Source: a virus
Lineage: Duplodnaviria; Caudoviricetes
IMG/VR virus record: IMGVR_UViG_3300015360_000023
Coordinates: 1-64,000 of that record
Length of the DNA: 64,000 nucleotides
Direction: 5' to 3' (one strand)
The notes under the pieces: generated by a model
The model's input: only the letters and a program-made list of their open reading frames with translations
Told to the model about the DNA's origin: nothing
Databases searched by the model: none
Position numbers and translations under genes: made by a program
Shown: one piece after another, positions 85 through 38,074 of the stretch
How the letters are laid out: each line of letters begins with the position of its first letter
Position numbering within the stretch: position 1 is the first letter of the stretch

Positions 85-124
85 TTCGGAAATGACCTGA
101 TATATAATGTTTCGGAGGTTAGAA

Positions 125-799
125 ATGATTACCGAAACATCAAAAATTTATTCTCTGTATTGTATTGCAAATCTGATAAATGGTAAAGTTTATATTGGTC
201 AAGCAACCGATGTAAATAAAAGATGGTTTGACCATCGTAAGGCTGTTAGAATAAACAAGCCAACTCAACTTATTCATCATGCATTGATTAAGTATGGATT
301 AGAAAATTTTGAATTCGAAGTGGTAGCATCTTGTAAGACGCAGGATGATGCGAACACCACAGAGACAGAATTAGTGAAGCAGTATAATAGTTTTGTTGGA
401 AATGGCGAAGGATATAATGCTACGCTTGGTGGAATGAATGCGCCAAAAACTGAAGAGTGGAAACAAAAAGTATCTCAAACCCTAATGGGTCATGAGGTTT
501 CTGAAGAAACCAGGCAAAAGATTTCGGTGGCTGTTACTGGGAGTATTCGTTCCGAGGAATTCAAAAAGAACGTTGGTGATTTTTGGAGGGGGAAAGAACG
601 AACTGAAGGGCACCGACAAAACCTATCTGATTCTCTTAAAGGTAATCAGAATTGTTTAGGTAAACAAAATTCGTTAGGACATAAGCACACAGAAGAGTCA
701 AAGAAAAAGATTGGTGCCGCTTCCCGAGGTAAACCTAGTACCCATAAAGGTAAAACTTGGAAAATTATAGATGGCAAGAGAGTGTGGCTAAATGATTAA
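125..799 (+). CDS. GIY-YIG homing endonuclease with NUMOD3-type DNA-binding repeats (free-standing)
   Basis: N-terminal LYCIANLINGKVYIGQ...RWFDH. C-terminal GHEVSEETRQKIS and HKHTEESKKKIG repeats. Start moved to ATG 125 because GGAGGT precedes it. Confidence 0.9.
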   Translation: MITETSKIYSLYCIANLINGKVYIGQATDVNKRWFDHRKAVRINKPTQLIHHALIKYGLENFEFEVVASCKTQDDANTTETELVKQYNSFVGNGEGYNATLGGMNAPKTEEWKQKVSQTLMGHEVSEETRQKISVAVTGSIRSEEFKKNVGDFWRGKERTEGHRQNLSDSLKGNQNCLGKQNSLGHKHTEESKKKIGAASRGKPSTHKGKTWKIIDGKRVWLND

Positions 800-7621: not shown

Positions 7622-9079
7622 ATGAAATTACGAGAACTACTTCAACAAATGCAAGCTGTGCAAAAAGAAATGAAGACCTCTCCGGCCTTCATTTGCGGAG
7701 GCACGCCTAGAGATCGATATCTCCAGCAAATTGAAAAGATCTCGGACGTTGATATTACAACTGGTGATAAGAGTATTCAACTGCTTTCTCAAGAGCTAAG
7801 TGCCGCTCTTGCTAAACAGTATAATATCGTTACCAAAACTTTCGATGATGGTCACAGCGCCCTTCATATTGGTAAGTTCAAAATGGATTTTTCATCCAAT
7901 TTTAACGTTGAGAATGTAGACGCAATTCTTGCAAAGATGGGCTTCAAAAACATTACTGAGATGAAGAAAGAAATGTTTAGTAGAGACTTTACTTGTAATG
8001 CCTTATTACTTTCTTTAGACTTAAGAATCCTACTAGATCCAACTGATAGGGCCCTTAAAGACATTAAAGAAAAGAAGATTAGAACTTGTTTATCTCCGGA
8101 ACTTACTCTTACCTCAAATAGAAATAGAGTAATTAGATCCGTTTATTTGGCATCCAAATTAGGATTTGATATTGATGAATCTATTATTGAATTTGTTAAA
8201 AGAAATCCTGGTAGCGTTAAAATTTCTACACCAACTTCATTAACTGAAAAACTTAATCAAGCTTTTTCAATGGATGGAGATAGAGCTGCCCATAACATTA
8301 CTAAGATGGGGCTTTGGGAAGAGATTCCTATTACTAATGTGGTTCAACCTTATTATTTGAAGAAGGGCCAGTTGGCATCTAAAAAAGCTTACTTTCAAGG
8401 TGGTGGCGGAGTTAACGAGCCAACACCAAAGAAGAAAAAATATAAGTCCGACACCGCTATTGTGGTTCAACCAAGATTCGAGGAGCCTCTTTATCGTAAC
8501 TACGATTTATACGATACTCCAGGCAAGCATAGCCCAGGGGCCGGTTGGCACTCCATGCAAAAGTATAAAAGCGTTGAGGAATTTCTAAAGGCAAAAAGGA
8601 AGGAACTAAAGGACAAGTACAAGGCCGATGACTCTTGGATTGAGGATTCTGGTAAAATTACCAAGAACAATCCAATGAAGGCTCGTGCCGAGTTACTTTC
8701 AAAAATAATTAAAATTGGAATCGATTTTCCAATTGACGATCAAATTGAGTCTACTATTGACCATGATGGTGATTTATCTAATCATTCTTTAGAGATGGGT
8801 ATGGCTATGCCGTTACCTCTAAATGATTCTGAGGGAAAGCCTCCGTCAGAATTGGACTTTGGCCATTTAGAAAATGGCGAGCCAATGAAAGCTGATGAAG
8901 ATTTAATCGATTTAATAACCGAGAAGTATTTGGCTCATGAAGCTAAAACTGAACAAAATGGATTACCAGATGGCTTTAATCATTCCGAAGAGGAAGACAT
9001 TGAACCTACTCAAATGAATCCAGAATATGGTACTTTAGGTCCGGAAAGTACTATGTATGAAGATAAATGGAATATTTAA
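7622..9079 (+). CDS. Divergent class II (CCA/poly(A) polymerase family) nucleotidyltransferase fused to an unstructured C-terminal tail
   Basis: ICGGTPRD...DVD (motif A) and FSRDFTCNA (motifs B/C). The motif D position reads SNRNR rather than EDxxR. The tail starts KKAYFQGGGGVNEPTP. Confidence 0.85.
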   Translation: MKLRELLQQMQAVQKEMKTSPAFICGGTPRDRYLQQIEKISDVDITTGDKSIQLLSQELSAALAKQYNIVTKTFDDGHSALHIGKFKMDFSSNFNVENVDAILAKMGFKNITEMKKEMFSRDFTCNALLLSLDLRILLDPTDRALKDIKEKKIRTCLSPELTLTSNRNRVIRSVYLASKLGFDIDESIIEFVKRNPGSVKISTPTSLTEKLNQAFSMDGDRAAHNITKMGLWEEIPITNVVQPYYLKKGQLASKKAYFQGGGGVNEPTPKKKKYKSDTAIVVQPRFEEPLYRNYDLYDTPGKHSPGAGWHSMQKYKSVEEFLKAKRKELKDKYKADDSWIEDSGKITKNNPMKARAELLSKIIKIGIDFPIDDQIESTIDHDGDLSNHSLEMGMAMPLPLNDSEGKPPSELDFGHLENGEPMKADEDLIDLITEKYLAHEAKTEQNGLPDGFNHSEEEDIEPTQMNPEYGTLGPESTMYEDKWNI

Positions 9080-9100: not shown

Positions 9101-9142
9101 TAATTACATAGATATGTGAAAAATCACTCCAGAGGTCCTAAA

Positions 9143-10084
9143 ATGTCACTACAATCAACAGCACAAGAATTAATCGTGGTAGATCCTGCTCAGGATTTTC
9201 CAATGGGTGATGCAGGAATGCAATTGGTTCCATTGGAAGTCGAAGACCCACATCCCGAACACCCTGCAACTGTTGAGTCTTTTGAACCTCTTGAGGTTGG
9301 TGAGCACGATCATGGCCAGCCAGAAGAAATTGAAATTGTTATGGAGTTACCGGGCGCCCCACCAGGCACCAAGGACCCAGAGCCAATTTTAGAAGTTCAT
9401 GAAGATGAGCCTAAGGAAGATAAGGGCGAGGCCCAAGACGAAGACCCAGCCAAGGCTGCAAAGAATGAAAAATGGGATTGGTCAAAGCGTGGTCCAACCG
9501 GATTCATTGCTTGGGTCAAAGAGCGTTGTGATGATGTTCCAAAGCACTCCGGTTACGACACCGCAGGTCTTGAGAGAGCTGTTGCCTACCTAGAGAGATT
9601 AGATAATGAAGTTTCTAAGGCCATGAGAATGGACTTGGATGGTGAACTAGATGCCAACCAAATTGAGAAGACTAGAGCTATCATCGATAATGGTATTGAG
9701 CGTTTGCACGACCGTCTTGATAAAGTTAAGAGCACCAAGAAGAAGAGCCGCAAGAAGAAGGGCTACGAATTGAATGAAGGTTTCCAAAAGGAAGCTCAAA
9801 AAATTACTGGTGTTAGTGGTGTTCTTGTAACCGTTCCTCTATTGATTTCAAGAATCGCAAGAGTCTGTGTTAACGGAATGGTTTCCGCAGGACATGATAT
9901 CGAAGATTTGTATGAGAGACAAGTTAAGTTCTACAAGCTTAATGACCGTGAACAAGCTGAAGTTATGCAGCTACTAGCTGACATGGGTTACTCCGTTCGT
10001 CAAGATAGAGGCTTCATGCCAGATGAGCAATTAGAAGTTTCTGATACTAATGGTATGGATTGGGCCGCGAACTACAAAGGATAA
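9143..10084 (+). CDS. Hypothetical head-module protein (acidic disordered N-terminus, helical core)
   Basis: Start after GAGGT at ATG 9143. Contains FQKEAQ. Confidence 0.7.
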   Translation: MSLQSTAQELIVVDPAQDFPMGDAGMQLVPLEVEDPHPEHPATVESFEPLEVGEHDHGQPEEIEIVMELPGAPPGTKDPEPILEVHEDEPKEDKGEAQDEDPAKAAKNEKWDWSKRGPTGFIAWVKERCDDVPKHSGYDTAGLERAVAYLERLDNEVSKAMRMDLDGELDANQIEKTRAIIDNGIERLHDRLDKVKSTKKKSRKKKGYELNEGFQKEAQKITGVSGVLVTVPLLISRIARVCVNGMVSAGHDIEDLYERQVKFYKLNDREQAEVMQLLADMGYSVRQDRGFMPDEQLEVSDTNGMDWAANYKG

Positions 10085-10086: not shown

Positions 10087-10740
10087 ATGTCAAAGTACAA
10101 CAGACATTCATCGGTTGTGTCAAGACAATCCGATTCGCCAATTGATGAAGATAGCTGGCTTCACAGATTCGAAAAGAGTCTAATGAAGGATGCTGTCCAA
10201 ACCAAGAAACAAGACTCTTCATTGTTTGAACAGATTAATACCATCATGAATGGAAAATCAAAATTCCCTTCTGTTGACGCTGCTGTTCAGGATATGAAAG
10301 AAAGAAGCGGCCTAACCGCTTATATTGAAAAGATCAATAAATCTTCCGAGGGAAACCTTCCAACTTCTAAGAAAATTGCCTCTGATAATCAGCAAGCAAT
10401 TGACAAGAAAGTTGAAATGACACCAATTGTTTTAACTAAACAGCCTCAGATCAAAAAAACTATTGAAAATTACATAAGGGACACTAAAGGCAATTTGCCA
10501 GTGCCAGCCATCATTGATAAGATTCGTTCTATCCATTCAAAAGATGTAACCGATTCTAAAGATTGGGACGATGATAAGCTTATCATTTTGGTAAGTAGAC
10601 TTAATCTATCAGCTAAGAAAGATAATCCTGGAACATTTCAGGACTACGGTAATTTAGGTTCTCGTGATACTGGTTCTGAAGCTGATATTGATCCATCAAA
10701 CACTGATGCTTTCTTTGCTTTAACTCCCGTTAAGCAATAA
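10087..10740 (+). CDS. Hypothetical head-module protein
   Basis: Start after GGATAATC at ATG 10087. Contains SKKIAS. Confidence 0.7.
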   Translation: MSKYNRHSSVVSRQSDSPIDEDSWLHRFEKSLMKDAVQTKKQDSSLFEQINTIMNGKSKFPSVDAAVQDMKERSGLTAYIEKINKSSEGNLPTSKKIASDNQQAIDKKVEMTPIVLTKQPQIKKTIENYIRDTKGNLPVPAIIDKIRSIHSKDVTDSKDWDDDKLIILVSRLNLSAKKDNPGTFQDYGNLGSRDTGSEADIDPSNTDAFFALTPVKQ

Positions 10741-11410
10741 CTTCTGGATCTGATAGTTTACGGCAATTGCAATTGTAGCATAGAACCTGTAAACCTAAAT
10801 GCATTGGGAAATTTTGTTTGATTAACCAGCGATACATTCTTACTCCAGTAAAACATTTAAGTTGACGGCGCTGAACAGCGCCGTCATTGTTTTTATGATC
10901 AATAGTTAATCGCTCAATTCTATCTTCTTTGCATTTTGTGCATTGATTGCCATAAGCTTCCATTACTTTCTTTTTATCACGAAGAGCGTATTTGTCTTTG
11001 TACACGACTCCTTTACTACAATTACAGTTGTAACAGAGTATTTGATATCCATCATGTTGTACTGGATTATTGTATAGCCATTCATACATATGATTTGAAA
11101 TTTGTTTTCTATGAGCGTTTCCGCCTCCAAATTTATGATCAAGTGTTAATTTATAATAGTCATCTTCTCCACATTGAGCGCACATATCTCCATAAGAAGC
11201 AATAATGGCACTTTTTCTACCACGATATCTGGCCAGTTGTTTTTTACCATAATTAGGCGTACTTAAATAGTATTTTTTATCTATTAATTTTCGACAAGAT
11301 TTACATGTATATCGACTTACTTTTTTATCATAAGTATTCCAATTATCTTCTATTAATTCTATACCACATTTATTACATGTTTTTAGACTGAGTTTTTCTG
11401 TTGAAGTCAT
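10730..11410 (-). CDS. HNH-type endonuclease with two tandem HNH/Zn modules
   Basis: Two copies of CxxC-E(D)-x-LT(L/I)DH...MY.WL...Q(I/V)LCYNCN. Inserted in reverse just upstream of TerL. Confidence 0.8.
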   Translation of the reverse strand: MTSTEKLSLKTCNKCGIELIEDNWNTYDKKVSRYTCKSCRKLIDKKYYLSTPNYGKKQLARYRGRKSAIIASYGDMCAQCGEDDYYKLTLDHKFGGGNAHRKQISNHMYEWLYNNPVQHDGYQILCYNCNCSKGVVYKDKYALRDKKKVMEAYGNQCTKCKEDRIERLTIDHKNNDGAVQRRQLKCFTGVRMYRWLIKQNFPMHLGLQVLCYNCNCRKLSDPEVIA

Positions 11411-11436: not shown

Positions 11437-13335
11437 ATGAGTAATATTAATTTAGAATCAAAAGAATTATTTCACAAATTACGTAAACAGCTATTAATGC
11501 TTGATCCCGTGATGTTTGTGGAGACCTATCTTACATTAGATGGCAAACCATTCAGACTAAGGGGCAACGGGTATAAACCTTTTTCAGAGGTATATCGTTA
11601 TATCGGTGTCAAAGCTTTAGAACCGAATTCAAAGCCGCTAATCATCGTCAAGGGACGTCAGGTCGGCGCTACTACGATGGCCAGTGCTCTTGAGATGTAT
11701 TTCATGGGCTGCGGACTCTTTGGTACTGGCGAGAAGCCACCGATGAGAGTTATCCACGCTTTCCCTCAATTGGAATTAGCTGCCGCTTATTCTAAAACCA
11801 AACTTAACCAAATTATCTCTACGGCTATGCCGGTAGAAACTGGCGAAGTTAAAAAAGCAGGCGCCAAGCCAAAGTCTCACATGCAGGCTCTGCTAGATCA
11901 ATCTACTGCTACAAATGACTCATTGCATTTCAAACAGTTCAGTGGCGGAAACCATTTGTGGGTTGAGTCTGTTGGACTTGACGGCGACCGCATCATGGGT
12001 CGTACCGCTGATATCCTTTTCTTTGATGAGGTTCAGAAAACGACTAGCATGGCTATCGGAAACTCTCTTAAGGTTTTAACTACCTCCAAGTATGGTAGAC
12101 CATCTAAGGGTGTTCAAGTTTACTTTGGAACTCCAAGACGTAAAGGTTCTGACTTCCATAAAATGTGGCAGTCCTCATCTCAGCAATTTTACTATTTGGG
12201 ATGCGAGAATTGTGAGAAGCATTTCCCTCTTTACACTCCCGGCTCTGATGAGTGGAAGTCAATTTGGGTTTACGGAATGATTGTTAAGTGTCCACATTGT
12301 GCACATGAACAAAACAAACTAGACGCTGCTGAACGTGGCAAATGGATTTCCTCTAAAGACCCTAACGACGAAGATTGTTTAATGGTTGGATTTCATCTTA
12401 ACCAGCTTTACATGCCTATGTTTACGCGTGAAGATATCGATGCTGAAATGCCGGGCAAGCATCCAATTAACACTGAACGTGTTTACATGAATGAAGTTTT
12501 AGGAGAATTCTTCCAAGGAGACTCTAGCCCTATTACTCCGGAAGAAATTAAAGACCAATGTGCTGATATTGGTCGTAAGTTCTCTGCTCGTATTGCGCCA
12601 GTCATCAATAAGGCAAGCCCTCAGATTGTTGTATTAGGTATCGACTATGGAGCTAGAGCTGATTTAGAGCAATTAGCTAATCCAGAAAAGATAAGAGTTA
12701 CAGGCCAGTCTTATAGTACGGCAGTTGTATTATCGGCTAAAGGGCCTAATCTGTTAAGTATTGAATTTGCAACTAAGTTCAAACGTAATGATATGGAAAG
12801 TAAAAAGGGTATCATTGATCAGCTTATGAGACAGTATAGCGTTCAATTGGCCGTTGGAGACATTGGATATTCAAACGACTTTTCAGCTATGTTACATAAT
12901 ATTTATGGAGATAAGTATTTAGTTTCTCGTGCTCATAATAAATTGAATGGACATATTAAATTTTCAGATGATGCATTTCCAAAAGAAATAGTTTTTGAAA
13001 GAGATTTTTATATTGGCGAACTTTATGAGCAATTAAAAAAGGGTCAAATTAAATTTCCATTTGGAGATTATGAGAAGATTGCTTGGTTAATTGATCATTG
13101 TTGTAGTATGGAAATTAAACCCACCGTATCAAGAATGGGCGGGGATCCTACTATTCATTATGTTAAAGGAAGCACTCCTAACGACGGATTTATGGCTTTA
13201 TTGAATGCATACCTGGCATATAAGTTCATCATTACGAGAGGGTTTACTAGTCATAATCCCTTAATTCAGCAGGCAAATTTCAAAGATCGCCATAAACCAT
13301 TGGTAATTGCTGGGTTTATACCTCGTAAGTTTTAA
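11437..13335 (+). CDS. terL: Terminase large subunit (lambda gpA-like, with Zn finger)
   Basis: Walker A-like IVKGRQVGATT, Walker B ILFFDEVQ, CENC...CPHC Zn finger and RNase H-like nuclease VVLGIDYG. Confidence 0.92.
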   Translation: MSNINLESKELFHKLRKQLLMLDPVMFVETYLTLDGKPFRLRGNGYKPFSEVYRYIGVKALEPNSKPLIIVKGRQVGATTMASALEMYFMGCGLFGTGEKPPMRVIHAFPQLELAAAYSKTKLNQIISTAMPVETGEVKKAGAKPKSHMQALLDQSTATNDSLHFKQFSGGNHLWVESVGLDGDRIMGRTADILFFDEVQKTTSMAIGNSLKVLTTSKYGRPSKGVQVYFGTPRRKGSDFHKMWQSSSQQFYYLGCENCEKHFPLYTPGSDEWKSIWVYGMIVKCPHCAHEQNKLDAAERGKWISSKDPNDEDCLMVGFHLNQLYMPMFTREDIDAEMPGKHPINTERVYMNEVLGEFFQGDSSPITPEEIKDQCADIGRKFSARIAPVINKASPQIVVLGIDYGARADLEQLANPEKIRVTGQSYSTAVVLSAKGPNLLSIEFATKFKRNDMESKKGIIDQLMRQYSVQLAVGDIGYSNDFSAMLHNIYGDKYLVSRAHNKLNGHIKFSDDAFPKEIVFERDFYIGELYEQLKKGQIKFPFGDYEKIAWLIDHCCSMEIKPTVSRMGGDPTIHYVKGSTPNDGFMALLNAYLAYKFIITRGFTSHNPLIQQANFKDRHKPLVIAGFIPRKF

Positions 13336-13403: not shown

Positions 13404-15263
13404 ATGACAGTTCATAAAGCTCAAAAACTATGGGTAGGACCCTCTAACTCAGAATCATACTTAGGATCTAAGTCTGCTCTTCCACAAGTTAGCTCTTTAA
13501 TGTCAAAAAGCGTTTCAGAGATTAGGCGTCAAAATATCTCTGGTGAAGTAGAGGCTGGCCTTTTTAGAGATGGTTCCGGACCTACTCTTAAAGAAGATGG
13601 TGCAACCGCCAATGGCCGCGTTGTGTCTTCTGTTGGTCAACATAAATATGCGCAAGTTGTAAGCAGTGGCGGGGGAGGCTATCGTGGTGGCAACGGAGAT
13701 ACCGTTAAACAAACCCCAGAAGTCTATTCTCCTCTTTGGTTAAATTCCAATCTAAATCTTCCACGTGATAGAGCTACCATCAATGCCTGGTGTCGTAGCT
13801 TTTATGCTTTGAACCCTTTCGTTCATAATGCAATTAATTTACATAGCACTTATCCAATTAGCAAACTAAATATCAAGTGCCCTAATAAAGACATTGAAAA
13901 ATTCTTCAACGATATGATTGAAGAAATTGATTTAATGAATATTTGCGTTCAAATTGCGCAGGAATATTGGCTACTTGGTGAGTCTTTCGTTTACGCTGAG
14001 CTTGATGAAAGCCGTGGTAAGTGGAGTCGTCTACTTATTCAAAATCCAGACTACATGATTGTTAAGCGTACTGTTGTTGCTAATGAACCAATCATCATGT
14101 TGCGTCCTGACGAGAACCTAAAGAAGATTATCTTCTCTAATCGTCCAACCGATATCGAGCAACGTAAACAACTTAATAATCACATCATTGACTCTGTCAA
14201 GCGCGGTGAAAATATTCCATTGGATAATTTCCATGTATCGCATTTGGCTCGTAGAATCAGCCCTTACGAAATCAGAGGAACTGGTCTTCCAGTCTGTATT
14301 TTCCGTCAATTAATGTTATTTGACAAGCTTCGTGAATCCAAGTATGCACAAGCTGATAATATGATTAATCCATTAACTTTAGTTAAGATTGGTACCGATG
14401 GTCCTGATGGATTGCATCCAACTTTTGCTGACTTAGATGCATGGAGAAATGTATTTGAAGAAGCTCAATATGATAAGGATTTCAAGATCTTTACTCACGC
14501 TGGTATCGCTGTTGAGCGCGTAGGATACGGTCAGGGTATCTATGATATTTCTGGTGACATTACTCAGATCATTAAAGAAATTTATGTTGGCTTACAAGTT
14601 CCACCTGTTCTTATGGACGGGGGTGCTGATACTACTTATGCGAACGGCGGTGTGGCTTTGGACGTTCTAAGGCAACGTTACATGCAATTCCGTAACATGA
14701 TGAGCACGTGGCTTAAAAGAAAGATTTTCGCACCAATCTCTAAGATTCAAGGGTTCTACGATTACTCGGGCGGCGAGAAACAATTGATTGTTCCAGAAGT
14801 AGATTGGAACCACATGAGCTTGTTTGACGCAGGCGATTATATCAACAGCTTAGTTACTCTTACTCAGGGCGACGGCCCAGCCAAGAGAGCCTCTTTACAT
14901 ACCCTATATCGTTCTATGGGTCTAGAATTTGAGGATGAAGTCCGTAAAATGCGTAAAGAAGCTATTCAACAAGCAATTGATGCTAAGGAAAAAATAGCTT
15001 TAGGCGCTATGGATTTGAATGCTTTGAGAGCCCTGGATGAGGAAGATGAAATTCCAGAGCCAGAGCAACCAGCAGGTGGAGCGCCTCCAGGCGGTCCAGG
15101 AGCACCATTACCAGGAGAAGTCTCAGGTGGAGCACCACCTCCAGGTGGCGGTCTTCCTGGCCTAGATATGGGTGCACCTCCGGGTGGAGCGCCTCCACCT
15201 CCCCCTCCTACCCCTCCATCAGGTGGAGATGCAGGTGGTGGAGCACCCCCTCCCCCAGCATAA
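13404..15263 (+). CDS. Portal protein with an N-terminal extension and a Pro/Gly-rich C-terminal tail
   Basis: Directly after TerL. NPFVHNAINLHSTYP, YWLLGESFVY and IQNPDYM portal-type motifs. GGAPP-rich tail. Confidence 0.85.
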   Translation: MTVHKAQKLWVGPSNSESYLGSKSALPQVSSLMSKSVSEIRRQNISGEVEAGLFRDGSGPTLKEDGATANGRVVSSVGQHKYAQVVSSGGGGYRGGNGDTVKQTPEVYSPLWLNSNLNLPRDRATINAWCRSFYALNPFVHNAINLHSTYPISKLNIKCPNKDIEKFFNDMIEEIDLMNICVQIAQEYWLLGESFVYAELDESRGKWSRLLIQNPDYMIVKRTVVANEPIIMLRPDENLKKIIFSNRPTDIEQRKQLNNHIIDSVKRGENIPLDNFHVSHLARRISPYEIRGTGLPVCIFRQLMLFDKLRESKYAQADNMINPLTLVKIGTDGPDGLHPTFADLDAWRNVFEEAQYDKDFKIFTHAGIAVERVGYGQGIYDISGDITQIIKEIYVGLQVPPVLMDGGADTTYANGGVALDVLRQRYMQFRNMMSTWLKRKIFAPISKIQGFYDYSGGEKQLIVPEVDWNHMSLFDAGDYINSLVTLTQGDGPAKRASLHTLYRSMGLEFEDEVRKMRKEAIQQAIDAKEKIALGAMDLNALRALDEEDEIPEPEQPAGGAPPGGPGAPLPGEVSGGAPPPGGGLPGLDMGAPPGGAPPPPPPTPPSGGDAGGGAPPPPA

Positions 15264-20648: not shown

Positions 20649-23600
20649 ATGACTTTCATTAAACTAGGCGAAGCACAAGAGATTAAATTGGAGGACATTG
20701 AGTCCTGCCTTCCTGCTGTTAGTGCTGAAATTCTAGAAAACTTTAGGAAGACGGCTGCTGGCCTTAAAAAGGTCGCACCAAAAGCTGAAGACTTTCTTTA
20801 CTTCTCCGCTGTTATGATGCATGCCGCAGAAGCATCTGCACTTAATGATGATGGAACACAAAAGCTAACTGTCAGAGGCGAACCTGTTAAGGTTGGTTGG
20901 GATAAGAGCGGTGGAACATTACGTTGGATGAGTAATGACCCTAGCATTAAACCTTATAAGAATTCTAATGGAGATATATTTCCAGAGGAAGAACTTGTTA
21001 AGGCACATAAAAAGTGGGTTCATAAGCCTCTTTGCATAGATCATAAATCCAGTTCGGTTGATCATGTTAGAGGCTTTATTGTTGATACCTATTACGATCG
21101 CAATCTAAAAAGAGTAATTGCTCTTTGTGCGCTTGATAAAGCAGGCTACCCTCAATTAGCTAGACAAATTTCTACTGGAGTTTCTAACTGCGTATCCATG
21201 GGTACGGCTGTTGGAAAGGCAATCTGTTCTGATTGTGCCAGAGTGGCTCGTGCAGAAGCTGATTTCTGCGACCACATGAGACGCAAGAGTTGCTACGGTG
21301 AAATCAACGTAGACCTTAACCCTCTTGAATTATCTATTGTAGTTAATGGAGCAGATCCAAAGGCTAATATTAAACACATTATTGCTGCTGCAAATACTCT
21401 TAATACTTATGTTGAAAATAAGCAAAAAGAAATTAAGAAGTTAGCAGAAAGCTTTACAGCTAATATTGATTTTACAACTGGTGATAGTCAAGCCGATAAT
21501 AAGGTTACTCACGTTTCAGTTACATCTAAAGATATTGACACTTTTAAGAAAGATGTCGAAAAGGCTATTGTAGACTTCCAGAGTCTGCAATCTTCATTAA
21601 ATGAAGAAAATATGCAAGAACATGGGAATGATCTTGCATCTAATCAACTGTCGGGTGTTGAAAACGCTTCGGCCGATGATTCTGGATTGGCTCCCCCACA
21701 CGCAAGATATGCATCCTATGAAGTAGGGGCGAATGCTATCGACGAACTTCGAGCGGTTATGAAAGCCATCGAGACCAAGTTGGGCCAAACGCAAGTAAGC
21801 TTGGATAAGTTAGCAAACACTTCTACAACGATACAAGAGGAAAATATGTCAGGTACAAATAACATTAACAAGCAGGGTTATTACCAAGGTGCGGGTGGCG
21901 TAAATGAGCCAACCCCAGGTCAAGCTAAGTATCCGAAGGACCCTCTTAATGAGCAACTTCGTGAAAAAGAGGATAGACAAATGGTAGGTCAATCTCCATT
22001 TCCAGAAGTAGGATCAGTTGAGGGTATGCACCCATCTCCAGATTCCGCTGAGACCTCTGATGAACTACAACGCAAGAAGATGCTTGCCCGTGCTGAATCT
22101 GAAGAGAGAGCAGCTCGTCGTACCGCAATCGTTAACCTTGCAAAGGCCGCTCTTGAAAACAAGACTGCTTACTTCCAGGGTGGTGGTGGCGTAAATGAGC
22201 CAACTCCAGGTAAAGTAAAGTATCCTGCTGATAAGGGTCACATGGCTTATGAAGATGATAAGCACATGCATGGCAAGAAGCCATTCCCAGGTGTTGGGCC
22301 AGTTGATGGCGCATACCCAGAAGATTTAAAGAAGAAGGAACTTCTAAGCAGAGCTGCTCTAAGAGCTAAGTTCGTTAGAGTTGCCAACGAAGAAGGAACC
22401 GCAAACCTAGGTAAGAGTGCTTGGGAAGTTTACAGCGGTGACAAGCTTCTATTAACTGCCTCCGTAGATGAACTATCCGGTGGACGTTCTGAAGTTCTAT
22501 ACGACAGCATTGCAACCAAAGACTTCGGCGCCAAGTTACTTGAAAAGGTAAAGGCTCACGGTGTTGATAAGATTCGCTCTCTTGTAAAGAGTGCACAAGG
22601 CGCTCCTCCAGCAGAAGCAGCCCCACCAGCCGACGCAGGCGCACCACCAGCCGATGTAGCTCCTCCAGCAGAAGATACTGGCAAGTCTGGTGATCCAAAG
22701 GAAACCCTTCTTGATACTGCCGAAAAGGCAAGAGACCTTGTCTCTGATGTTGTTGAAGGTGTTAGAGCCCTTACTGGCGAACAAGCCGAAATGGGCGCTC
22801 CAGATGATGCAGCTCCAGAGATGGGCGCGGCAGCTTCTTTCAGCACTGCTACTCTTAATAACTTAAGAAGAGAACTTAACGGAACACTTACCACTGCTAT
22901 GAAAGAGTGCGCTGCTAACCTAAACGACCACGTTCAAGAACTTGAAATGGTTGCCGGTCTTTATGACAAGGGCGCAGTCACTAATTCTAATGAAGCATTT
23001 GTTGGTGCAATCGTTGAGGACGCGCTTACTGAAGCCAGAGCATCTATTGCCGATGGTTTCAAGCTTATGACCGCATTCGTTAAGTATGCTCGCGGTACCA
23101 AAGCAATTGTAAAACGTGCCGAAATTGAGGCCGAACTTGAGGCATTAGCTGAAGGAGAAAACATGACAGGCGAACTAGACGCCAACAATGGCGACGACTT
23201 AATGGCCATGATCTCTGACACCAACTCCGATTTGGATGCTGTCAAGAGTCTTATGGCAGACGATGAAGGACTATTAGACAATGGTGATGAGACTGAAGGA
23301 CTTCTTGCTGATGACGACAACGACATCAAAGCAGGTGACCTTAAGCCAGAAACTGAACTACCAGAGTTTATGAACCAAGCTTCTTACGATAGCCGTTCCG
23401 GACGTGCCGCACTTCGTGCCAAGCTAGCCGCTGACGCTCTTGGTAAGCAAGATGACGGTGAGTCTCAAGATATGTCTCACGCTAAGTTTAGCGATATGCT
23501 AGGCGAAGCTGACAAGCTTGCTGACGGACAAACTGACTTAGATGTCAAGCCATCTGATAACCTAGGCAAGGTTGAAACCCTACCAGAAGTTAACAAGGCT

Positions 23601-24152
23601 ATGATGGATCTTGCAAAAGCTCCACCTAAGGTCCGTAAGGAAGCAGAAGCTATCTACAGACTTGTTTCTGAAGGTAAGCTTGATCCAGCAGACCTAGATG
23701 CTCTTGTATCAGAAGGTTTGGATAAGGATGCAGTTTCTTACTACAAGAAGTACTTTGCTCAAACCGAAGGTGGCTCTGAATTCGCTAGCGAATTAGTCAA
23801 GGAACACGTTAAGGCTCAACTTGAAGCAGAGCTTAACAAGTACAGAGTCAAGCTAGCTCGTTCTTACGAACTTGCTTATGACATGGTTGACCGTGGTTTG
23901 TGCGGCGGAGACAGAGGCGCAGTATCTAACCAAGTTGATGAGATTATGCAATTCAACGATGAGTCATTCGATTCTCTAAAGAGAGTTGTCGCAAGACACC
24001 CAGTAACTAACCTTCGTAAGGAGGGCGGACGTATGCCACAAGTTGGTGTAATCGGTTCTGGTGACCTTAACACTCCATCTTCACAGTCCGAAGGTGATAT
24101 GCTTGCACAATTAACAGCAGCATTTTCTAAGACTTCCAAGAGAAGCTTCTAA
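20649..24152 (+). CDS. Prohead (maturation) protease fused to scaffolding protein
   Basis: HK97/assemblin-like motifs NGDIFP, KPLCIDH, VSMG and ELSIVVNGADP, with a CSDC...C.H Zn insert. About 900 aa of acidic, coiled-coil scaffold-like sequence follows. Confidence 0.85.
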   Translation: MTFIKLGEAQEIKLEDIESCLPAVSAEILENFRKTAAGLKKVAPKAEDFLYFSAVMMHAAEASALNDDGTQKLTVRGEPVKVGWDKSGGTLRWMSNDPSIKPYKNSNGDIFPEEELVKAHKKWVHKPLCIDHKSSSVDHVRGFIVDTYYDRNLKRVIALCALDKAGYPQLARQISTGVSNCVSMGTAVGKAICSDCARVARAEADFCDHMRRKSCYGEINVDLNPLELSIVVNGADPKANIKHIIAAANTLNTYVENKQKEIKKLAESFTANIDFTTGDSQADNKVTHVSVTSKDIDTFKKDVEKAIVDFQSLQSSLNEENMQEHGNDLASNQLSGVENASADDSGLAPPHARYASYEVGANAIDELRAVMKAIETKLGQTQVSLDKLANTSTTIQEENMSGTNNINKQGYYQGAGGVNEPTPGQAKYPKDPLNEQLREKEDRQMVGQSPFPEVGSVEGMHPSPDSAETSDELQRKKMLARAESEERAARRTAIVNLAKAALENKTAYFQGGGGVNEPTPGKVKYPADKGHMAYEDDKHMHGKKPFPGVGPVDGAYPEDLKKKELLSRAALRAKFVRVANEEGTANLGKSAWEVYSGDKLLLTASVDELSGGRSEVLYDSIATKDFGAKLLEKVKAHGVDKIRSLVKSAQGAPPAEAAPPADAGAPPADVAPPAEDTGKSGDPKETLLDTAEKARDLVSDVVEGVRALTGEQAEMGAPDDAAPEMGAAASFSTATLNNLRRELNGTLTTAMKECAANLNDHVQELEMVAGLYDKGAVTNSNEAFVGAIVEDALTEARASIADGFKLMTAFVKYARGTKAIVKRAEIEAELEALAEGENMTGELDANNGDDLMAMISDTNSDLDAVKSLMADDEGLLDNGDETEGLLADDDNDIKAGDLKPETELPEFMNQASYDSRSGRAALRAKLAADALGKQDDGESQDMSHAKFSDMLGEADKLADGQTDLDVKPSDNLGKVETLPEVNKAMMDLAKAPPKVRKEAEAIYRLVSEGKLDPADLDALVSEGLDKDAVSYYKKYFAQTEGGSEFASELVKEHVKAQLEAELNKYRVKLARSYELAYDMVDRGLCGGDRGAVSNQVDEIMQFNDESFDSLKRVVARHPVTNLRKEGGRMPQVGVIGSGDLNTPSSQSEGDMLAQLTAAFSKTSKRSF

Positions 24153-27197: not shown

Positions 27198-27971
27198 ATG
27201 ACCGACGAAACACAAGACAATCGAATTCACTATCTTTACTGCATTACTAATAAAATCAACGGAAAAATCTATATCGGTCAAACAGTCCAGCCTGATAAAA
27301 GGTGGTATCAGCACAAAAATATGGCCGCTCAAGATCAGCCCATGATGATAATTTCCTACGCTATCAAAAAATATGGTAATCAAGCGTTTGAATTTGAAGT
27401 GATAGCTGGATGTAAAACTTGGGATGATGCAAATGATATAGAAACTTTGTTAGTTTCACAATATGGTAGCCTAGTACCCAATGGATACAATGTTTCACTT
27501 GGCGGCATGAATGCGCCTAAATCTGAAGCTTGGATCCAGGCCATGAAAGCCTGGCATGCTTCATTATCTTCCGAAGAACGAGCGGAAATTAGTAAAAAAC
27601 AAGCCGAAGCAACCGCAAATCAAATTGCTACCAAGGGTCATCCCGCCGCTGGCCGTATCGTTACACAAGAAGAAAGAGAATTGCATCGTAAGACACGTTT
27701 GGAAAACCCTATTAATTACACCGAAGAACTACGACAAAAAATGTCTGAGGCCCATATTGGAATCAAAGATTCCGAAGAGACTAAAGCTAGTAAATCTGCA
27801 AGCGCTACAGAAGCCTGGGAGAAACGAATTGATTATTCTCGTAAATGCGAAGCTCCTGGCTGTGAGATTTCCGGTAAGGTCAAATACAAGATAATTAACG
27901 GAATTCGTTATTGTAACAAGCATGGCCTACGAATGTTACGCTATAATAGATTAGATACTTTAGATAGCTAA
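27198..27971 (+). CDS. GIY-YIG homing endonuclease (free-standing)
   Basis: YLYCITNKINGKIYIGQT...RWYQH and NUMOD3-like YTEELRQKMSEAH. C-terminal Cys/His cluster. Confidence 0.9.
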   Translation: MTDETQDNRIHYLYCITNKINGKIYIGQTVQPDKRWYQHKNMAAQDQPMMIISYAIKKYGNQAFEFEVIAGCKTWDDANDIETLLVSQYGSLVPNGYNVSLGGMNAPKSEAWIQAMKAWHASLSSEERAEISKKQAEATANQIATKGHPAAGRIVTQEERELHRKTRLENPINYTEELRQKMSEAHIGIKDSEETKASKSASATEAWEKRIDYSRKCEAPGCEISGKVKYKIINGIRYCNKHGLRMLRYNRLDTLDS

Positions 27972-35208: not shown

Positions 35209-36222
35209 ATGAATATGTTTTCCAACAAAGGCGAAATGAACGCCTCATCCCTTAAGGATGCTCTACAAACCTTAGTTAAGTATGCAGCCGTTCTTGAAGA
35301 GAACACTCCATCTAACATGGGTCTTGCAGGTCAAGCTTCTTTGAGTGACGACAAGCGCGATGAGCTTATCTCCCGCGCAATTATGACTCAAGACGGCAAG
35401 ATTGCTCTAGCTCAGGCTATGGCAAACCCAATCCGTAGAAACTTGGACTACCATGGTATTGCTCGTAGAGCACTTGTAGTCGATCCATTGCCACAGGGTG
35501 CAATGCCAACTTACGATAGAGATATCGACGTTGCCGCAGTTGTTATCTCCAGCAACGGTACTGGCCCAGAGTCCAGAGTATTCGGCGACAGAGTTGTCGT
35601 TCCAGAATTCGAAATCTACGCAAACCCAACTGTTAGAATCGCAGAAGTCAAGCGTCGTAGATTCAACGTTATTGACAGAGCAGTTCAAAAGGCTCGTCAA
35701 GAAATCATGGCACAAGAAGATGCAAACATCTTCGCAGCTTTGGATGCAGCATCCTCAGTTGAAAACACCCTAACCGACATTGCTGATGCAGGCCTTCTAA
35801 AGAGAGACCTTGTCGAAATCAAGCAACAGATCGACCGTTGGGACCTTGTTACTACCAAGTACTTCATGAACATCAATGAGTTCACCGATATCCTTAAGTG
35901 GGGATCTGGTGGCGGTCAAGGTGTTGGTGGTGGTGACTTCGATCCAGTAACTATGAGAGAAGTTCTACAAACTGGTCTTTACGCTCACATCTGGGGTACT
36001 GACATTATGGTATCTAAGATCGTTCCACCAGGAACCATCTACGGTGCAGCAGACCCAGAGTTCGTTGGTGTTATGCCAATTAGACAAGACATTGAAGTTC
36101 TACCAGCAGACGAGCCAAAGCAATTGAAGCTTGGATGGGTAGTTTCTGAAATCATCGGTATCGCTATCGTTAACCCACGTGGTTGCGCAGCCGGCCGTAA
36201 GTCAGTTGTCGTCGGAGCCTAA
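35209..36222 (+). CDS. Major capsid protein (HK97 fold)
   Basis: AGGAG SD before ATG 35209 gives about 337 aa. PEFEIYANPTV, IMAQEDANIFAAL and IGIAIVNPRG motifs. Strong expression codon bias, a terminator downstream and head-module context. Confidence 0.88.
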   Translation: MNMFSNKGEMNASSLKDALQTLVKYAAVLEENTPSNMGLAGQASLSDDKRDELISRAIMTQDGKIALAQAMANPIRRNLDYHGIARRALVVDPLPQGAMPTYDRDIDVAAVVISSNGTGPESRVFGDRVVVPEFEIYANPTVRIAEVKRRRFNVIDRAVQKARQEIMAQEDANIFAALDAASSVENTLTDIADAGLLKRDLVEIKQQIDRWDLVTTKYFMNINEFTDILKWGSGGGQGVGGGDFDPVTMREVLQTGLYAHIWGTDIMVSKIVPPGTIYGAADPEFVGVMPIRQDIEVLPADEPKQLKLGWVVSEIIGIAIVNPRGCAAGRKSVVVGA

Positions 36223-36308: not shown

Positions 36309-36845
36309 ATGAGCATTACTTTTGATTCTGATATCGAACGCGACATGGAAACAAAGACCGAGCCCTGTATGTGCGCTCAAATGGCCGAGCATTGGTCCGA
36401 TTTTTATGAAGGTCGAGATACTCCTGCCATCCGCGATAACCTCAAACAAGAAGCTAACCCAGGCTGCTTTCATTGTAAAGGGTCTGGTATTGAAAAAGTT
36501 GAACATGAAATTAATGCTCCAACACTTAATCTATCTAATATGAATGCTGCTGTTCTTTTTGATATTCTAGGTATCAATGGTGAGAAACATGAATTAACTA
36601 TTCCAGAAGCTCGCCGTGCTATTATTAGATCACAAGCTCGCGGTTCTTTAGAACAATTTGTTCGTCCAGAAAGAACAGAATACGGAAAACCAAGAGAAAT
36701 TTCTCCTGGAGTTGTAGATTTAAAACCGTTACGCCTCTTCGAGAGGGGCTTAACCAAAGAACAAATTCAGGCTTACATAGTAAGGTTTGCTGATTTTGTT
36801 AGTCAAGTAACTCGAAGAGGCGCTACGAGGATTTTCTGGGGCTAA
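36309..36845 (+). CDS. Hypothetical protein with Cys pairs (CxC...CxxC)
   Basis: 178 aa with CMC and CFHCKGSG. Its stop overlaps the convergent CCA gene stop. Confidence 0.65.
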   Translation: MSITFDSDIERDMETKTEPCMCAQMAEHWSDFYEGRDTPAIRDNLKQEANPGCFHCKGSGIEKVEHEINAPTLNLSNMNAAVLFDILGINGEKHELTIPEARRAIIRSQARGSLEQFVRPERTEYGKPREISPGVVDLKPLRLFERGLTKEQIQAYIVRFADFVSQVTRRGATRIFWG

Positions 36846-38074
36846 ATTGAAGTCGCGTAATCCAGTAGGAAACTGGAAGTATTGTTCTCTGGATGTCGCA
36901 AAACTTCCAAATAACATTCCTCCAAAATTCTCTTGATCTCGGGACCTGGCTTGACGCCAATTAGCATCAAATCATTCCCATTTAGCCGCAATTCTCTACG
37001 GGCCAAGACCGTAACTGATTGGTACTTCGTAAAGAGCGCCCTAGATTGGTATCCCTCAGCCTCAGTCAATTGTAGAAATTGTTCCAAGGTGGATTCCCAA
37101 GCTTCGGGGCTATGGTTCTTGACGACCGCCATAAAGCTCTTATACGCAGATTCCGTATCCTTCTCTCGAAAAGCATGATACCGCTCATGCAATTGCAAAA
37201 GAAATACTACTTTCTTAATTTCTCTATTGGAGAACTTGAGGTTGGTTAGTTCCAATTCTGCAATTGAGGAAGGATAGTTGCTGTACATGAAGGCTAGACG
37301 AGTTTCCAGTTCACCTGTAGCTCTATCTTGCCCTGCACGGAATAGCCCATCACTTGAAAGTAGAGGGCAAGTAATGTAAATTGCTCCGCATTCCTTCAAT
37401 AGGTCAAGACCTACCTTGGCATAGGGCGCCATCAGCGTCTTGCAGAGTTCGTCTGCAACTCGTTCCTTTGATACCTTTTCCAAGGTATTAATAGATTCAC
37501 ACATTCCTTCAAACGTTGCTTGTTCTACATCATAGCCAAATCTAGCCGCAAAACGGCAAACTCGCATGATGCGCAATCCGTCTTCTTGGAAGCGTGCTTG
37601 AGCAGATCCAACGGCCCTTAAAACTCCTGCTTCTAGGTCTCGCATACCTCCATAAGGGTCGGCAATTCTATCAGCAATTGGGTCATAAGCAATAGCATTG
37701 ATCGTCAAGTCTCGGCGGGCCAAGTCTTGCTCTACATTCAGAACAAAGAAGACTTCATCGGGCCTTCGGCCGTCAGCATAAGCCCCCTCAATTCGGAAGG
37801 TAGTAACTTCAAAATGGTTTTCAACACCTTCACCTAGAACCACCGTTACCGTACCATGTTGTAGGCCGGTTGGAAGGGTCTTGGGAAACAGCGCCATCAC
37901 CTTTTGAGGAGTGGCATCTGTCGTAATATCCCAGTCCTTTGGAGTCTGCCCGAGAAGCATATCTCGAACGCATCCACCTACGATGTAGGCTTGGTAGCCC
38001 TCAGCGCTAAGAACGCGGCAAACTTCCAGAGCCCCTGGGTTTACGTGCTGTTGTGAAATATTCGTGTTTTCCAT
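36842..38074 (-). CDS. cca: CCA tRNA nucleotidyltransferase (class II, no HD domain)
   Basis: IVGGCVRD...KDWDITTDA, flexible loop TTFRIEGAYADGRRP, ARRDLTINA and canonical EDGLR. Start taken at the second ATG (38074). Confidence 0.9.
   Translation of the reverse strand: MENTNISQQHVNPGALEVCRVLSAEGYQAYIVGGCVRDMLLGQTPKDWDITTDATPQKVMALFPKTLPTGLQHGTVTVVLGEGVENHFEVTTFRIEGAYADGRRPDEVFFVLNVEQDLARRDLTINAIAYDPIADRIADPYGGMRDLEAGVLRAVGSAQARFQEDGLRIMRVCRFAARFGYDVEQATFEGMCESINTLEKVSKERVADELCKTLMAPYAKVGLDLLKECGAIYITCPLLSSDGLFRAGQDRATGELETRLAFMYSNYPSSIAELELTNLKFSNREIKKVVFLLQLHERYHAFREKDTESAYKSFMAVVKNHSPEAWESTLEQFLQLTEAEGYQSRALFTKYQSVTVLARRELRLNGNDLMLIGVKPGPEIKRILEECYLEVLRHPENNTSSFLLDYATSI

Follow-up and report, generated by a model that had tools for sequence, protein, structure and literature searches.

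The gene and its product

The whole 64,000-nt stretch of viral DNA analysed here, which we call the window, carries on its plus strand an open reading frame that precedes genes for the large terminase, the portal, a protease-scaffold and the major capsid protein; the coordinates of all features are collected in Table 1. The frame itself consists of a single enzyme domain followed by a disordered tail.

Table 1. Features of the nucleotidyltransferase locus and of the head genes in the window.
Feature	Position	Strand	Remarks
Open reading frame fusing enzyme and tail	7622-9079	+	485 aa
Mini class II nucleotidyltransferase domain, residues 1-253, head and neck only	7622-8380	+	PF01743, AF2, Foldseek
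Motif A, G26-G-T-P-R-D31, and catalytic D42-V-D44	7697-7753	+	invariant in the 47-sequence alignment
D89, candidate third carboxylate within K-x-D-F-S-S-N	7886-7888	+	invariant in the 47-sequence alignment
Motif B variant S120-R-D-F-T-C-N-A (canonical R-R-D-x-T-x-N-A)	7979-8002	+	BLASTP alignment
Motif D variant S165-N-R-N-R169, in the place of E-D-x-x-R	8114-8128	+	BLASTP, phmmer
Domain junction with two Lys-x-Ala/Gly sites (Y-L-K-K-G, S-K-K-A); gene boundary in split relatives	8354-8389	+
Scaffold-like peptide K-K-A-Y-F-Q-G-G-G-G-V-N-E-P-T-P-K-K-K-K-Y-K-S-D	8381-8458	+	predicted disordered
Tail/adaptor, mostly disordered, acidic, with conserved islands	8459-9076	+	alignments, AF2
I-I-K-I-G site in tail	8705-8719	+
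Near-invariant C-terminal tail peptide ...Y-E-D-K-W-N-I	9017-9076	+
Large terminase, ~3.8 kb downstream of the enzyme gene	11437-13335	+	PF05876 GpA_ATPase
Portal protein	13404-15263	+	phrog_16240, E 3e-52
Prohead protease-scaffold fusion, 1167 aa; protease region ~20961-21284	20649-24152	+	phrog_18299
Scaffold copy 1 of the shared peptide	21870-21947	+	12/16 identical
Scaffold copy 2 of the shared peptide, 291 nt past copy 1	22161-22238	+	15/16 identical
Major capsid protein	35209-36222	+	phrog_2522, E 1.6e-77
Canonical CCA-type enzyme (EDGLR, RRD, body and tail domains)	36842-38083	-	comparison copy

Sequence and predicted fold confirm the assignment of the product as a class II nucleotidyltransferase of the CCA/poly(A) type with its catalytic residues intact: residues 22-154 match the PolyA_pol head domain in Pfam (PF01743, E 1.7e-11), the AF2 model has a pLDDT of about 90 over residues 1-250, where order ends, and the best Foldseek matches of the domain are 4WBY, 4WC2, 1VFG, 3WFQ and CCA enzymes, over about 240 columns. 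In an alignment of 47 sequences, G26, G27, R30, D31, D42, D44, D89, R121, D122, N126, R169 and R172 are invariant, and motif A is present in 111 of 113 representatives of the family; every residue that binds metal or nucleotide is strictly conserved. The first-pass annotation, which had placed a class II enzyme with an intact catalytic centre in the terminase/portal/scaffold block, is borne out by the PF01743 match and by these invariant residues. D89 pairs with the canonical-strand Glu in BLASTP and phmmer alignments alike and may have a catalytic role.

The same annotation had taken all catalytic motifs to be intact, which holds for GGTPRD and DVD; motif B departs from the canonical form. 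Its residues 120-127 (SRDFTCNA) pair in BLASTP with RRDLTINA of the canonical copy in the window, retaining R-D and N but replacing the first Arg of RRD by Ser, and SRD is found in 108 of the 113 representatives. Motif D had been read as a replacement of EDxxR by S-N-R-N-R, and this is what the alignments give: the segment pairs with EDGLR of the canonical enzyme (BLASTP) and with EDPVR of the Aquifex aeolicus A-adding enzyme 4WBY/1VFG (phmmer), and of the template residues the Arg alone is kept. The body and tail domains (PF12627 and PF13735) have no match in the frame at E up to 1. The enzyme domain is thus one without the parts that hold tRNA and with an altered base-reading motif. This loss of the tRNA-binding domains had been overlooked in the earlier reading, as had the fusion of two genes described below.

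The canonical copy on the opposite strand matches PF01743 at E 1e-39, as well as PolyA_pol_RNAbd and tRNA_NucTran2_2, and has a sigma70-like promoter match at 38109-38082; the separate cca gene with such a promoter that had been noted earlier is therefore present.

Two genes joined in one reading frame

The frame joins two genes that usually stand apart. In most of 80 related loci, an enzyme of about 255 residues and a tail protein led by the shared peptide are encoded by separate, overlapping genes; at 31 distinct split junctions, the stop codon of the enzyme overlaps the ATG of the tail gene, with a ribosome site of the AAAGG type, and at three loci an HNH gene sits between the two. A programmed frameshift in the split relatives was considered and ruled out, since the +1-frame ORF starts at a separate ATG located 8-32 nt ahead of the stop; the ribosome site and the inserted HNH gene contradict it as well. 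The tail itself has no Pfam family and no ESM Atlas match, and PHROG yielded nothing usable for it.

Relatives add further modules to the enzyme, namely lysozyme, a weak M15, PcfJ, HAD_SAK or DUF5661. One homologue in the same genomic slot (P0446) is fused to a virion-type enzyme, the tail lysozyme Phage_lysozyme2, with a clear match, and also has a weak M15 match (M15_3); another (P0486) is fused to the RNA-repair phosphatase HAD_SAK; and a PcfJ module adjoins the enzyme or is fused to it. A Peptidase M15 identity was also considered for the downstream protein of a distant clade (P0512) and dropped, as this protein has no match in Pfam and the weak M15_3 match occurs only in the fused homologue.

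A peptide shared with the protease-scaffold

The tail part opens with a peptide of about 25 residues, KKAYFQGGGGVNEPTP, which begins at residue 254 (nt 8381) and has a pLDDT below 50 in the AF2 model. It recurs in the product of 20649-24152, which matches the head maturation protease family phrog_18299 (E 3.2e-12). The sharing goes far beyond chance: a peptide profile gives E 1e-25 and 4.5e-17 for the two carrier proteins and E 3 for the runner-up among 2,900 ORFs from all six frames of the 202.6-kb record, and within these 202 kb the peptide is exclusive to the tail and the protease-scaffold gene, where it occurs twice. At the DNA level, synonymous differences separate the three copies, so it is the amino acid sequence that is conserved and not the nucleotide sequence. 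Both scaffold copies are present in 121 of 121 scaffold homologues, in one relative (G004) at the identical spacing of 291 nt, and the peptide is conserved in the tail family as well; a GTEEPTP variant appears in the tail only where scaffold copy 1 has the same variant. The scaffold-like peptide reported earlier, with starts at 8381, 21870 and 22161, is thus real and family-wide. One relative (G005) has a tail from which the peptide is gone, although its enzyme and scaffold copies are retained.

The Tyr of A-Y-F-Q-G is invariant and occupies a flexible loop rich in Gly, which immediately follows the enzyme domain and occurs two times in the scaffold. A cut site of the 3C/TEV type (A-x-x-Q|G) was rejected, since many scaffold copies have L, N, G or H for the Gln, in contrast to K-x-[AG]-Y-[FYW] and P-T-P...K-Y, which persist. 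The peptide as a docking site of the enzyme itself is a weak candidate, being disordered beside the enzyme domain in the AF2 model. For the protease-scaffold, a model of residues 90-560 with 47 homologues reached a mean pLDDT of 47, with the protease domain itself poorly modelled.

Candidate cleavage sites of the form Lys-x-Ala/Gly accompany the peptide; in the frame, the candidate cut positions follow residues 249, 256 and 366. K254-x-A256 is kept in 108 of 121 sequences; the scaffold contains 17 hydrophobic-x-K-x-[AG] sites, compared with 4.7 +/- 2.1 in shuffled sequences; and of 32 head-block ORFs, 13 have the same pattern within their N-terminal 45 residues, compared with 22 of 166 elsewhere (Fisher p 6.5e-4), the major capsid protein having L-V-K-Y-A at residues 22-26. 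In the shared peptide the site is flanked by a polar residue (N-K-x-A), whereas capsid and scaffold show L-V-K-x-A, and cutting at the junction is uncertain for this reason.

Genomic setting and relatives

In a clade of 430-480-kb phages related to phage G, whose gp27 is 53% identical to the major capsid protein, the enzyme gene is a fixed and syntenic member of the terminase/portal block. Synteny with the terminase holds at 72 of 80 loci, the enzyme is found in all 17 capsid-defined contigs that extend far enough upstream, and on a 414-kb contig a relative with 33% identity still has the gene in its slot upstream of the large terminase. This fixed position in the packaging block suggests that the gene is probably important to a clade that is widespread in freshwater and soil. 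Searches of cultured phages yielded no near relative of the enzyme, only canonical tRNA nucleotidyltransferases at about 28-31% identity, and phage G, the nearest isolate by its capsid protein, lacks both the enzyme and the peptide. Neither tRNA genes nor a packaging RNA were found in the 202 kb, which make up about 47% of the genome.

Motif D and nucleotide choice

The enzyme is a member of a large uncultured family of huge phages, with SRD and DFSSN as hallmarks. Close homologues, which form the megaphage clade, keep the altered template as [ST]-N-[KR]-N-R, so that the check proposed earlier, whether homologues conserve SNxxR, has a positive outcome. Across the wide family the Arg is almost invariant, and the Asp position has D in 59 cases, N in 29, and S, Q and others in the rest, M, K, H and V among them; same-slot orthologues show at least 11 different residues there. 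More distant members retain x-D-P-x-R, and the 33%-identical orthologue in the same slot has D-D-P-R-R. With the Asp position free and the Arg near-invariant, N-x-N-R appears to be derived and is not proof of a U/G specificity; the pattern looks like relaxed constraint at the Asp rather than a designed new template. The proposal of the first-pass annotation that SNxxR confers a U/G-type specificity is thus not supported, in view of the retained Arg, the family-wide drift at the Asp position and the D-D-P-R-R orthologue.

Experiments on related enzymes bear on this pattern. Selection by E. coli poly(A) polymerase depends chiefly on the Arg of EDxxR; E211A and D212A hardly alter specificity, the latter mutant still adding more than 90% A (PMC2532741). 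From a library of the human CCA enzyme that included Asn and Ser, only x-D-x-x-R was recovered, which argues against a normal CCA or A-repair activity for an enzyme with Asn in place of the Asp (PMC11784652). Given the retention of Arg169 and the drift at the Asp position throughout the family, nucleotide choice would be expected to be dominated by the Arg, either like that of poly(A) polymerase or loosened; a clean switch to U/G is not expected.

Possible function

The reading we favour, tentatively and with somewhat less than even confidence, is that of an active RNA 3'-end enzyme with Arg-dominated nucleotide choice, which is loaded into the prohead by its scaffold-like adaptor, trimmed by the head protease and injected. 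The adaptor would accompany the scaffold and bring the enzyme into the prohead as this assembles, the head protease would trim the adaptor at the Lys-x-Ala/Gly joints, and the enzyme would exit with the DNA and repair or tail the RNA 3' ends of the newly infected cell. RNA is the substrate suggested by family membership. There is precedent for enzymes that are packaged in capsids and delivered with the DNA (PMC5512222). Against loading, the enzyme of most relatives is not covalently tagged, so that a contact between enzyme and adaptor would be required, and in one relative the tail is without the peptide; for an anti-defence cargo, in turn, a strictly conserved core gene would be unusual. The more general claim, that a clade of 400-kb-class phages loads an RNA 3'-end polymerase derived from a tRNA enzyme through mimicry of a scaffold peptide, releases it at Lys-x-Ala and injects it, is possible but doubtful.

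The untagged enzymes and the tail without the peptide would also fit a late cytoplasmic enzyme that is never packaged, has no more than an operon in common with the head genes and adds tails to RNA, mends it or labels transcripts for degradation, its peptide binding, for reasons unconnected with loading, a common factor such as a chaperone, the protease or a host protein; the HAD_SAK fusion, which suggests RNA repair, requires no packaging either. We consider this unlikely, though a serious alternative, as the position in the terminase/portal block is kept through deep divergence, the peptide is otherwise exclusive to the scaffold, lysozyme fusions and fused or adjoining PcfJ modules occur in the same slot, and the domain joints carry K-x-A/G sites. 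Instead of being cargo, the enzyme might serve morphogenesis or packaging, within the head under assembly or at the packaging motor, by acting on an RNA or DNA end used there or by nucleotidylating the Tyr of A-Y-F-Q-G in its own tail and in the scaffold, much as GlnD and GlnE modify tyrosines of proteins. Such a role draws on the core syntenic position just upstream of the terminase, the absence of tRNA-binding domains, the changes in the acceptor-side and template motifs, and the invariant Tyr in its Gly-rich loop after the enzyme and twice in the scaffold. It is improbable all the same: class II enzymes are known solely as RNA 3'-end polymerases (PMC3925840), the 202 kb contain no packaging RNA or tRNA, the AF2 model predicts no docking of the peptide on the enzyme domain (pLDDT below 50), and the proposal is pure inference. 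Its variant in which the enzyme nucleotidylates the invariant peptide Tyr in both scaffold and tail is very improbable.

That S-N-x-x-R re-specifies the pocket, the packaged enzyme adding U and/or G instead of C/A, we regard as quite improbable. The motif is kept as [ST]N[KR]NR in the megaphage clade, x-N-x-x-R is absent from the output of the CCA/A-repair selection (PMC11784652), and the template sets specificity and can be engineered, as in the G-adding poly(A) polymerase for which PMC2532741 cites Cho et al. 2007. Yet Arg169, a hydrogen-bond donor suited to C/A, is retained, addition of G requires amino acids at the motif positions that hydrogen-bond GTP (PMC2532741), and both the behaviour of D212A in poly(A) polymerase (more than 90% A; PMC2532741) and the at least 11 residues at the Asp position of same-slot orthologues count against a dedicated template. 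The least probable alternative, by far the weakest in our estimate, is a catalytically dead structural head protein that retains the fold alone; it would account for the non-canonical motifs B and D and for the structural genes all round, but not for the residues that stay invariant in sequences as little as about 30% identical, namely the two DxD carboxylates, GG-x-x-RD, R-D in motif B, N126 and R169.

Were loading and injection to hold, this would be the first RNA-tailing or repair enzyme delivered from a capsid, and one with a natural template other than EDxxR. Activities delivered by phages at infection include RNA polymerases, ADP-ribosyltransferases and anti-restriction proteins; carriage in the capsid would add RNA 3'-end chemistry to this short list, and the peptide copied from the scaffold would provide a tag for predicting or engineering the capsid cargo of huge phages. 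Class II nucleotidyltransferases are the textbook case of a protein template, EDxxR, that reads nucleotides, and hundreds of natural sequences in which the Arg is kept, the Asp wanders and the tRNA-binding half is lost offer a test of which parts of the template matter.

Comparison with known systems

With class II tRNA nucleotidyltransferases (4WBY/1VFG, the CC-adding 3WFQ and bacterial CCA enzymes), the phage enzyme has in common the head and neck fold over about 240 columns at 23-27% identity, as well as GG-x-x-RD, DxD, R-D-x-T-x-N-A, the Asp of motif C and the Arg of motif D. Unlike them, it has SRD for RRD and S-N-R-N-R for E-D-x-x-R, its motif A-B loop is without a D-G-R-R-P-type sequence, and it lacks the body and tail domains, which in tRNA nucleotidyltransferases hold the acceptor and T arms of the tRNA (PMC3925840); in their place a disordered adaptor follows, and the gene lies in the head/packaging block of a genome that encodes a canonical enzyme separately. 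The catalytic core is also like that of E. coli poly(A) polymerase I, where Arg-dominant selection (PMC2532741) fits the conserved Arg and drifting Asp seen here; that enzyme retains EDxxR, RRD and RNA-binding C-terminal domains, and its similarity to the phage enzyme is weak (E 6e-4).

The T4 internal proteins and Alt carry a capsid targeting sequence and are delivered with the DNA, and the cut motif in T4 is Leu/Ile-x-Glu. As there, a short peptide is common to the scaffolding core and unrelated proteins, with candidate head-protease sites adjacent. The putative targeting peptide here differs in being about 25 residues long and bipartite (K-x-A-Y-F ... E-P-T-P-x-x-x-K-Y), in lying inside the fusion and in reproducing a segment of the scaffold; the candidate cut motif is Lys-x-Ala/Gly rather than that of T4.

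Herpes scaffolds recruit the portal via a short Tyr/Pro/Gly motif. The product of 20649-24152 resembles the UL26-type fusions of herpesviruses, though unrelated to them in sequence: a protease is joined to a long scaffold in which short motifs recur and cut sites at small residues are numerous.

Polyvalent proteins, modular strings of enzyme domains encoded next to portal and terminase genes, are predicted to accompany the DNA (Iyer et al. 2017, PMC5512222). The lysozyme domain, which phage-type polyvalent proteins contain and which is fused to members of the enzyme family, and the PcfJ module, fused or adjoining, are likenesses to them. The survey of Iyer et al. 2017 describes minimal Pol-beta nucleotidyltransferases only, in conjugative elements and with proteins as predicted targets (PMC5512222); a class II domain of the CCA/PAP type in a phage head block, as described here, is absent from it.

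A minimal class II nucleotidyltransferase

The enzyme-tail ORF begins with a PolyA_pol head domain (Pfam, residues 22-154), and among solved structures it stands nearest, in sequence as well as in fold, to the Aquifex A-adding enzyme (4WBY, 4WC2, 1VFG), the CC-adding enzyme 3WFQ, and CCA-adding enzymes (~240 columns, 23-27% identity); AF2 models residues 1-250 confidently (pLDDT ~90). The first-pass annotation described the catalytic motifs as intact, which is true of GGTPRD and DVD, but not entirely of motif B, where alignment with the canonical enzyme of the window gives SRD in place of RRD.

More than 300 homologues of the protein exist, many from 400-511-kb contigs, with 176 loci in IMG/VR; residues 1-252, used as the query of an exhaustive search without profiles, recover 168 cluster representatives (E up to 1e-10), the majority of them standalone proteins of 240-260 aa. 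All members share K-x-D-F-S-S-N and S-R-D-F-T-x-N, two signatures that distinguish the family from canonical class II enzymes; SRD is present in 108 of 113 representatives. None of its members contains the body and tail domains, which hold the tRNA in class II enzymes (PMC3925840) and are both present in the canonical window enzyme (PF12627, PF13735). Because the catalytic residues are unchanged down to ~30% identity, the family is very probably active. It is found in none of the cultured phages in GenBank; we rate it a variant of a known enzyme type in an unusual, conserved context.

Coordinates of the features discussed
Feature	Sequence	Position	Strand	Remarks
GIY-YIG-like ORF	window	107-799	+
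Enzyme-tail ORF	window	7622-9079	+	485 residues
Motif D	window	8114-8128	+	S165-N-R-N-R169
Gene following the tail	window	9116-10084	+
Cys-rich ORF	window	10730-11410	-
Protease-scaffold	window	20649-24152	+	1167 aa
GIY-YIG homing endonuclease	window	27198-27971	+	phrog_314, E 8.7e-37
Capsid protein	window	35209-36222		phrog_2522, E 1.6e-77
Canonical enzyme	window	36842-38083	-
Promoter match	window	38072-38109	-	TTGACA-16-TATCAT, 11/12
HNH insert	related locus L020	5121-5720		weak PF01844
HNH insert	related locus L035	10749-11360		weak PF01844
HNH insert	related locus L055	2732-3409		weak PF01844
Gene following the enzyme	distant-clade locus L105	8758-9666

Motif D

The SNxNR sequence does occupy the place of motif D, as had been proposed, aligning with EDPVR of 4WBY and EDGLR of the canonical enzyme. 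Across the family representatives the Arg is kept almost always, and the templating-Asp position reads D (59), N (29), S (9), Q (5), or, in the remainder, residues such as M, K, H, and V; members closest to the canonical outgroup mostly have x-D-P-[KR]-R, and N-x-N-R marks the megaphage subclade containing the window phage. The E211A and D212A variants of E. coli poly(A) polymerase still give >90% A addition and R215A abolishes selectivity (PMC2532741); from a human CCA enzyme library in which Asn and Ser were allowed, selection for A or CCA repair recovered only E/D/G-D-x-x-R (PMC11784652). Given these results and the family pattern, a standard CCA or A-repair enzyme is unlikely, and the change looks like a relaxed constraint on the Asp, with the Arg still in charge. 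The earlier suggestion that SNxxR shifts specificity to U/G is not supported: the Arg is kept, the Asp position drifts, and a U/G template would have to offer hydrogen-bonding partners for U or G (PMC2532741).

Two genes and a shared peptide

The single fused ORF occurs only in the window and ~17 close loci; most others have two ORFs, an enzyme of 252-263 aa ending in ...K-G-K-x-N-V-x-K-stop, and a tail in the +1 frame, with an N-terminus M-S-V-N-K-K-A-Y-F-Q-G-G-G-G..., an ATG 8-32 nt ahead of the enzyme stop, and an AAAGG-type ribosome site before it. In three loci, an HNH endonuclease gene lies exactly between the two. A frameshift linking enzyme and tail is unlikely, because the tail has its own start and ribosome site and can be separated by these HNH genes. 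As the loci indicate, the ORF arose by gene fusion and fission, a history which argues that both products work together. The AF2 model fits the two-part layout, with the peptide disordered and the remaining tail poorly ordered; islands of conservation are spread over the tail, its C-terminus (...G-P-E-S-L-x-Y-E-D-K-W-N-I) is nearly invariant, and no relatives outside the enzyme/tail family were detected in Pfam or the ESM Atlas.

Two stretches of the protease-scaffold, whose N-terminal part is a head maturation protease (phrog_18299), match the peptide that opens the tail (from residue 254, nt 8381). Its near-identity to two scaffold repeats, remarked on in the first-pass annotation, is exclusive to this pair: a peptide profile searched against a six-frame set of 2,900 ORFs from the record finds only the two proteins (E 1e-25 and 4.5e-17; next best E 3). 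At the DNA level, synonymous differences separate the three copies. Since exactly two copies are present in all 121 protease-scaffold homologues examined, the peptide is by its distribution a scaffold element first of all, imitated by the tail. Its two parts, K-x-[AGS]-Y-[FYW] and E/x-P-T-P-x-x-x-K-Y, are held apart by a linker of variable, Gly-rich or inserted sequence, an arrangement that would suit a docking motif. A short G-T-E-E-P-T-P variant appears in the tail only in genomes with the same variant in scaffold copy 1 (three cases, which may share ancestry), a suggestive co-occurrence; in one genome it is confined to the scaffold. The AF2 model of a protease-scaffold fragment is of very poor quality. 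The scaffold homologue P0174 (1572 aa) has Hint/intein and homing-endonuclease Pfam domains, which suggests that the scaffold gene of this relative contains an intein.

A hydrophobic-x-K-x-[AG] site lies in the first 45 residues of 13/32 ORFs of positions 1-36300, against 22/166 elsewhere (Fisher p 6.5e-4), L-V-K-Y-A at capsid protein residues 22-26 being among those counted; the scaffold has 17 such sites, compared to 4.7 +/- 2.1 in shuffles. The enzyme/tail joint offers Y-L-K-K-G and S-K-K-A (K254-x-A256 kept in 108/121), and the tail I-I-K-I-G at 362-366 (kept in 97/121); these would fit as candidate protease sites, with polar flanks at the joint unlike L-V-K-x-A.

Genomic context

Eighty loci share the order of five conserved upstream genes, enzyme, tail, two conserved genes, in some loci an HNH gene, large terminase, and portal, the terminase synteny itself being counted in 72. 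All 17 capsid-defined contigs that reach far enough upstream are also in the enzyme list, which on this evidence places the enzyme in the core gene set of the clade. A 33%-identical representative (D-D-P-R-R) occupies the same slot on a 414-kb contig with a matching upstream gene-size pattern, followed downstream by an overlapping gene and a GpA-type terminase.

Several neighbors deserve mention. The gene following the tail is kept in 77/80 loci; its product is acidic and variable at the N-terminus, is highly conserved over the C-terminal half, which ends in D-W-A-A-N-Y-K-G, and gives a weak DUF7201 coiled-coil match only. The Cys-rich ORF, on the opposite strand between head genes and terminase, has repeated CxxC...C-Y-N-C-N-C and is HNH-like by eye; found in only 38/80 related loci, it is probably a mobile homing endonuclease. 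A GIY-YIG homing endonuclease sits inside the head block, and by eye the GIY-YIG-like N-terminus of the ORF at 107-799 is very similar to it. The sigma70-like promoter match of the canonical cca gene ends at the annotated ATG, so translation may in fact begin at the Met four codons further in, and the transcript could be leaderless.

The window makes up the first 64 kb of a 202,609-bp IMG/VR virus record, which is 47% complete by CheckV; complete relatives measure 433-481 kb, one with terminal repeats. The capsid protein shares 53% identity with Bacillus phage G gp27 and 88-100% with hundreds of metagenomic copies, which places the window phage in a large clade of uncultured huge phages related to phage G. 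The gp27 alignment covers only residues 43-327 of the window's capsid protein, and the 88-100% identity holds over >100 metagenomic clusters, against only ~60-70% for enzyme and scaffold of the same genomes. The scaffold homologue P0135 bears the NCBI label 'Candidatus Berkiella sp.' MAG, which either hints at the host or reflects a binning artefact. No tRNA or tmRNA gene is found by ARAGORN in the 202,609 bp (~47% of the genome), despite the complete canonical CCA-type enzyme gene.

Possible roles

The reading we consider most likely, though tentatively, is that the scaffold-mimicking adaptor would bring an active mini class II ribonucleotidyltransferase into the prohead, where it may be cut free at the K-x-A/G joints, to be released along with the DNA and act on RNA 3' ends early in infection; loading, cleavage, injection, RNA substrate, and nucleotide choice are steps we infer, and what the data show directly is the family membership and conservation of the enzyme, its two-gene origin, the synteny, the exclusive and conserved peptide, the enrichment of K-x-A/G sites, and the fusions. 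Against it stand the loss of the peptide from the tail in one complete relative, the enzyme without a joined tag in most genomes, and the strict core-gene status, odd for cargo. A late RNA enzyme that is never packaged is rather unlikely, and a morphogenetic or packaging function, nucleotidylation of the tyrosine in the peptide included, distinctly so; the U/G template is less probable again, the drift at the Asp under a retained Arg speaking against it, and a catalytically dead structural protein is scarcely credible with catalytic residues so invariant.

Partner domains of relatives bear on delivery and substrate. One family member is joined to the HAD phosphatase known from 'Swiss army knife' RNA repair proteins, which points to RNA 3'-end healing, and a PcfJ module is fused to or beside the enzyme in some others. 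In the homologue P0446, the enzyme is fused to a phage tail lysozyme with a weak M15 match; this fused part takes the syntenic slot that a separate gene downstream of the enzyme holds in the 414-kb relative. In the distant-clade locus L105, the gene following the enzyme starts with M-I-K-N-A-G-Y and has a W-E-E-Y...W-K-N-N-W module, which recurs twice in P0446, each time before a cell-wall hydrolase domain, and may be another adaptor-like module. The lysin fusion points to delivery with virion or DNA; polyvalent proteins of the phage type, which include lysozyme domains, are predicted to be packaged (PMC5512222). The nucleotidyltransferases in that survey of polyvalent proteins are minimal Pol-beta only, and from conjugative elements only (PMC5512222), whereas the enzyme described here is of class II type and lies in a phage head block.
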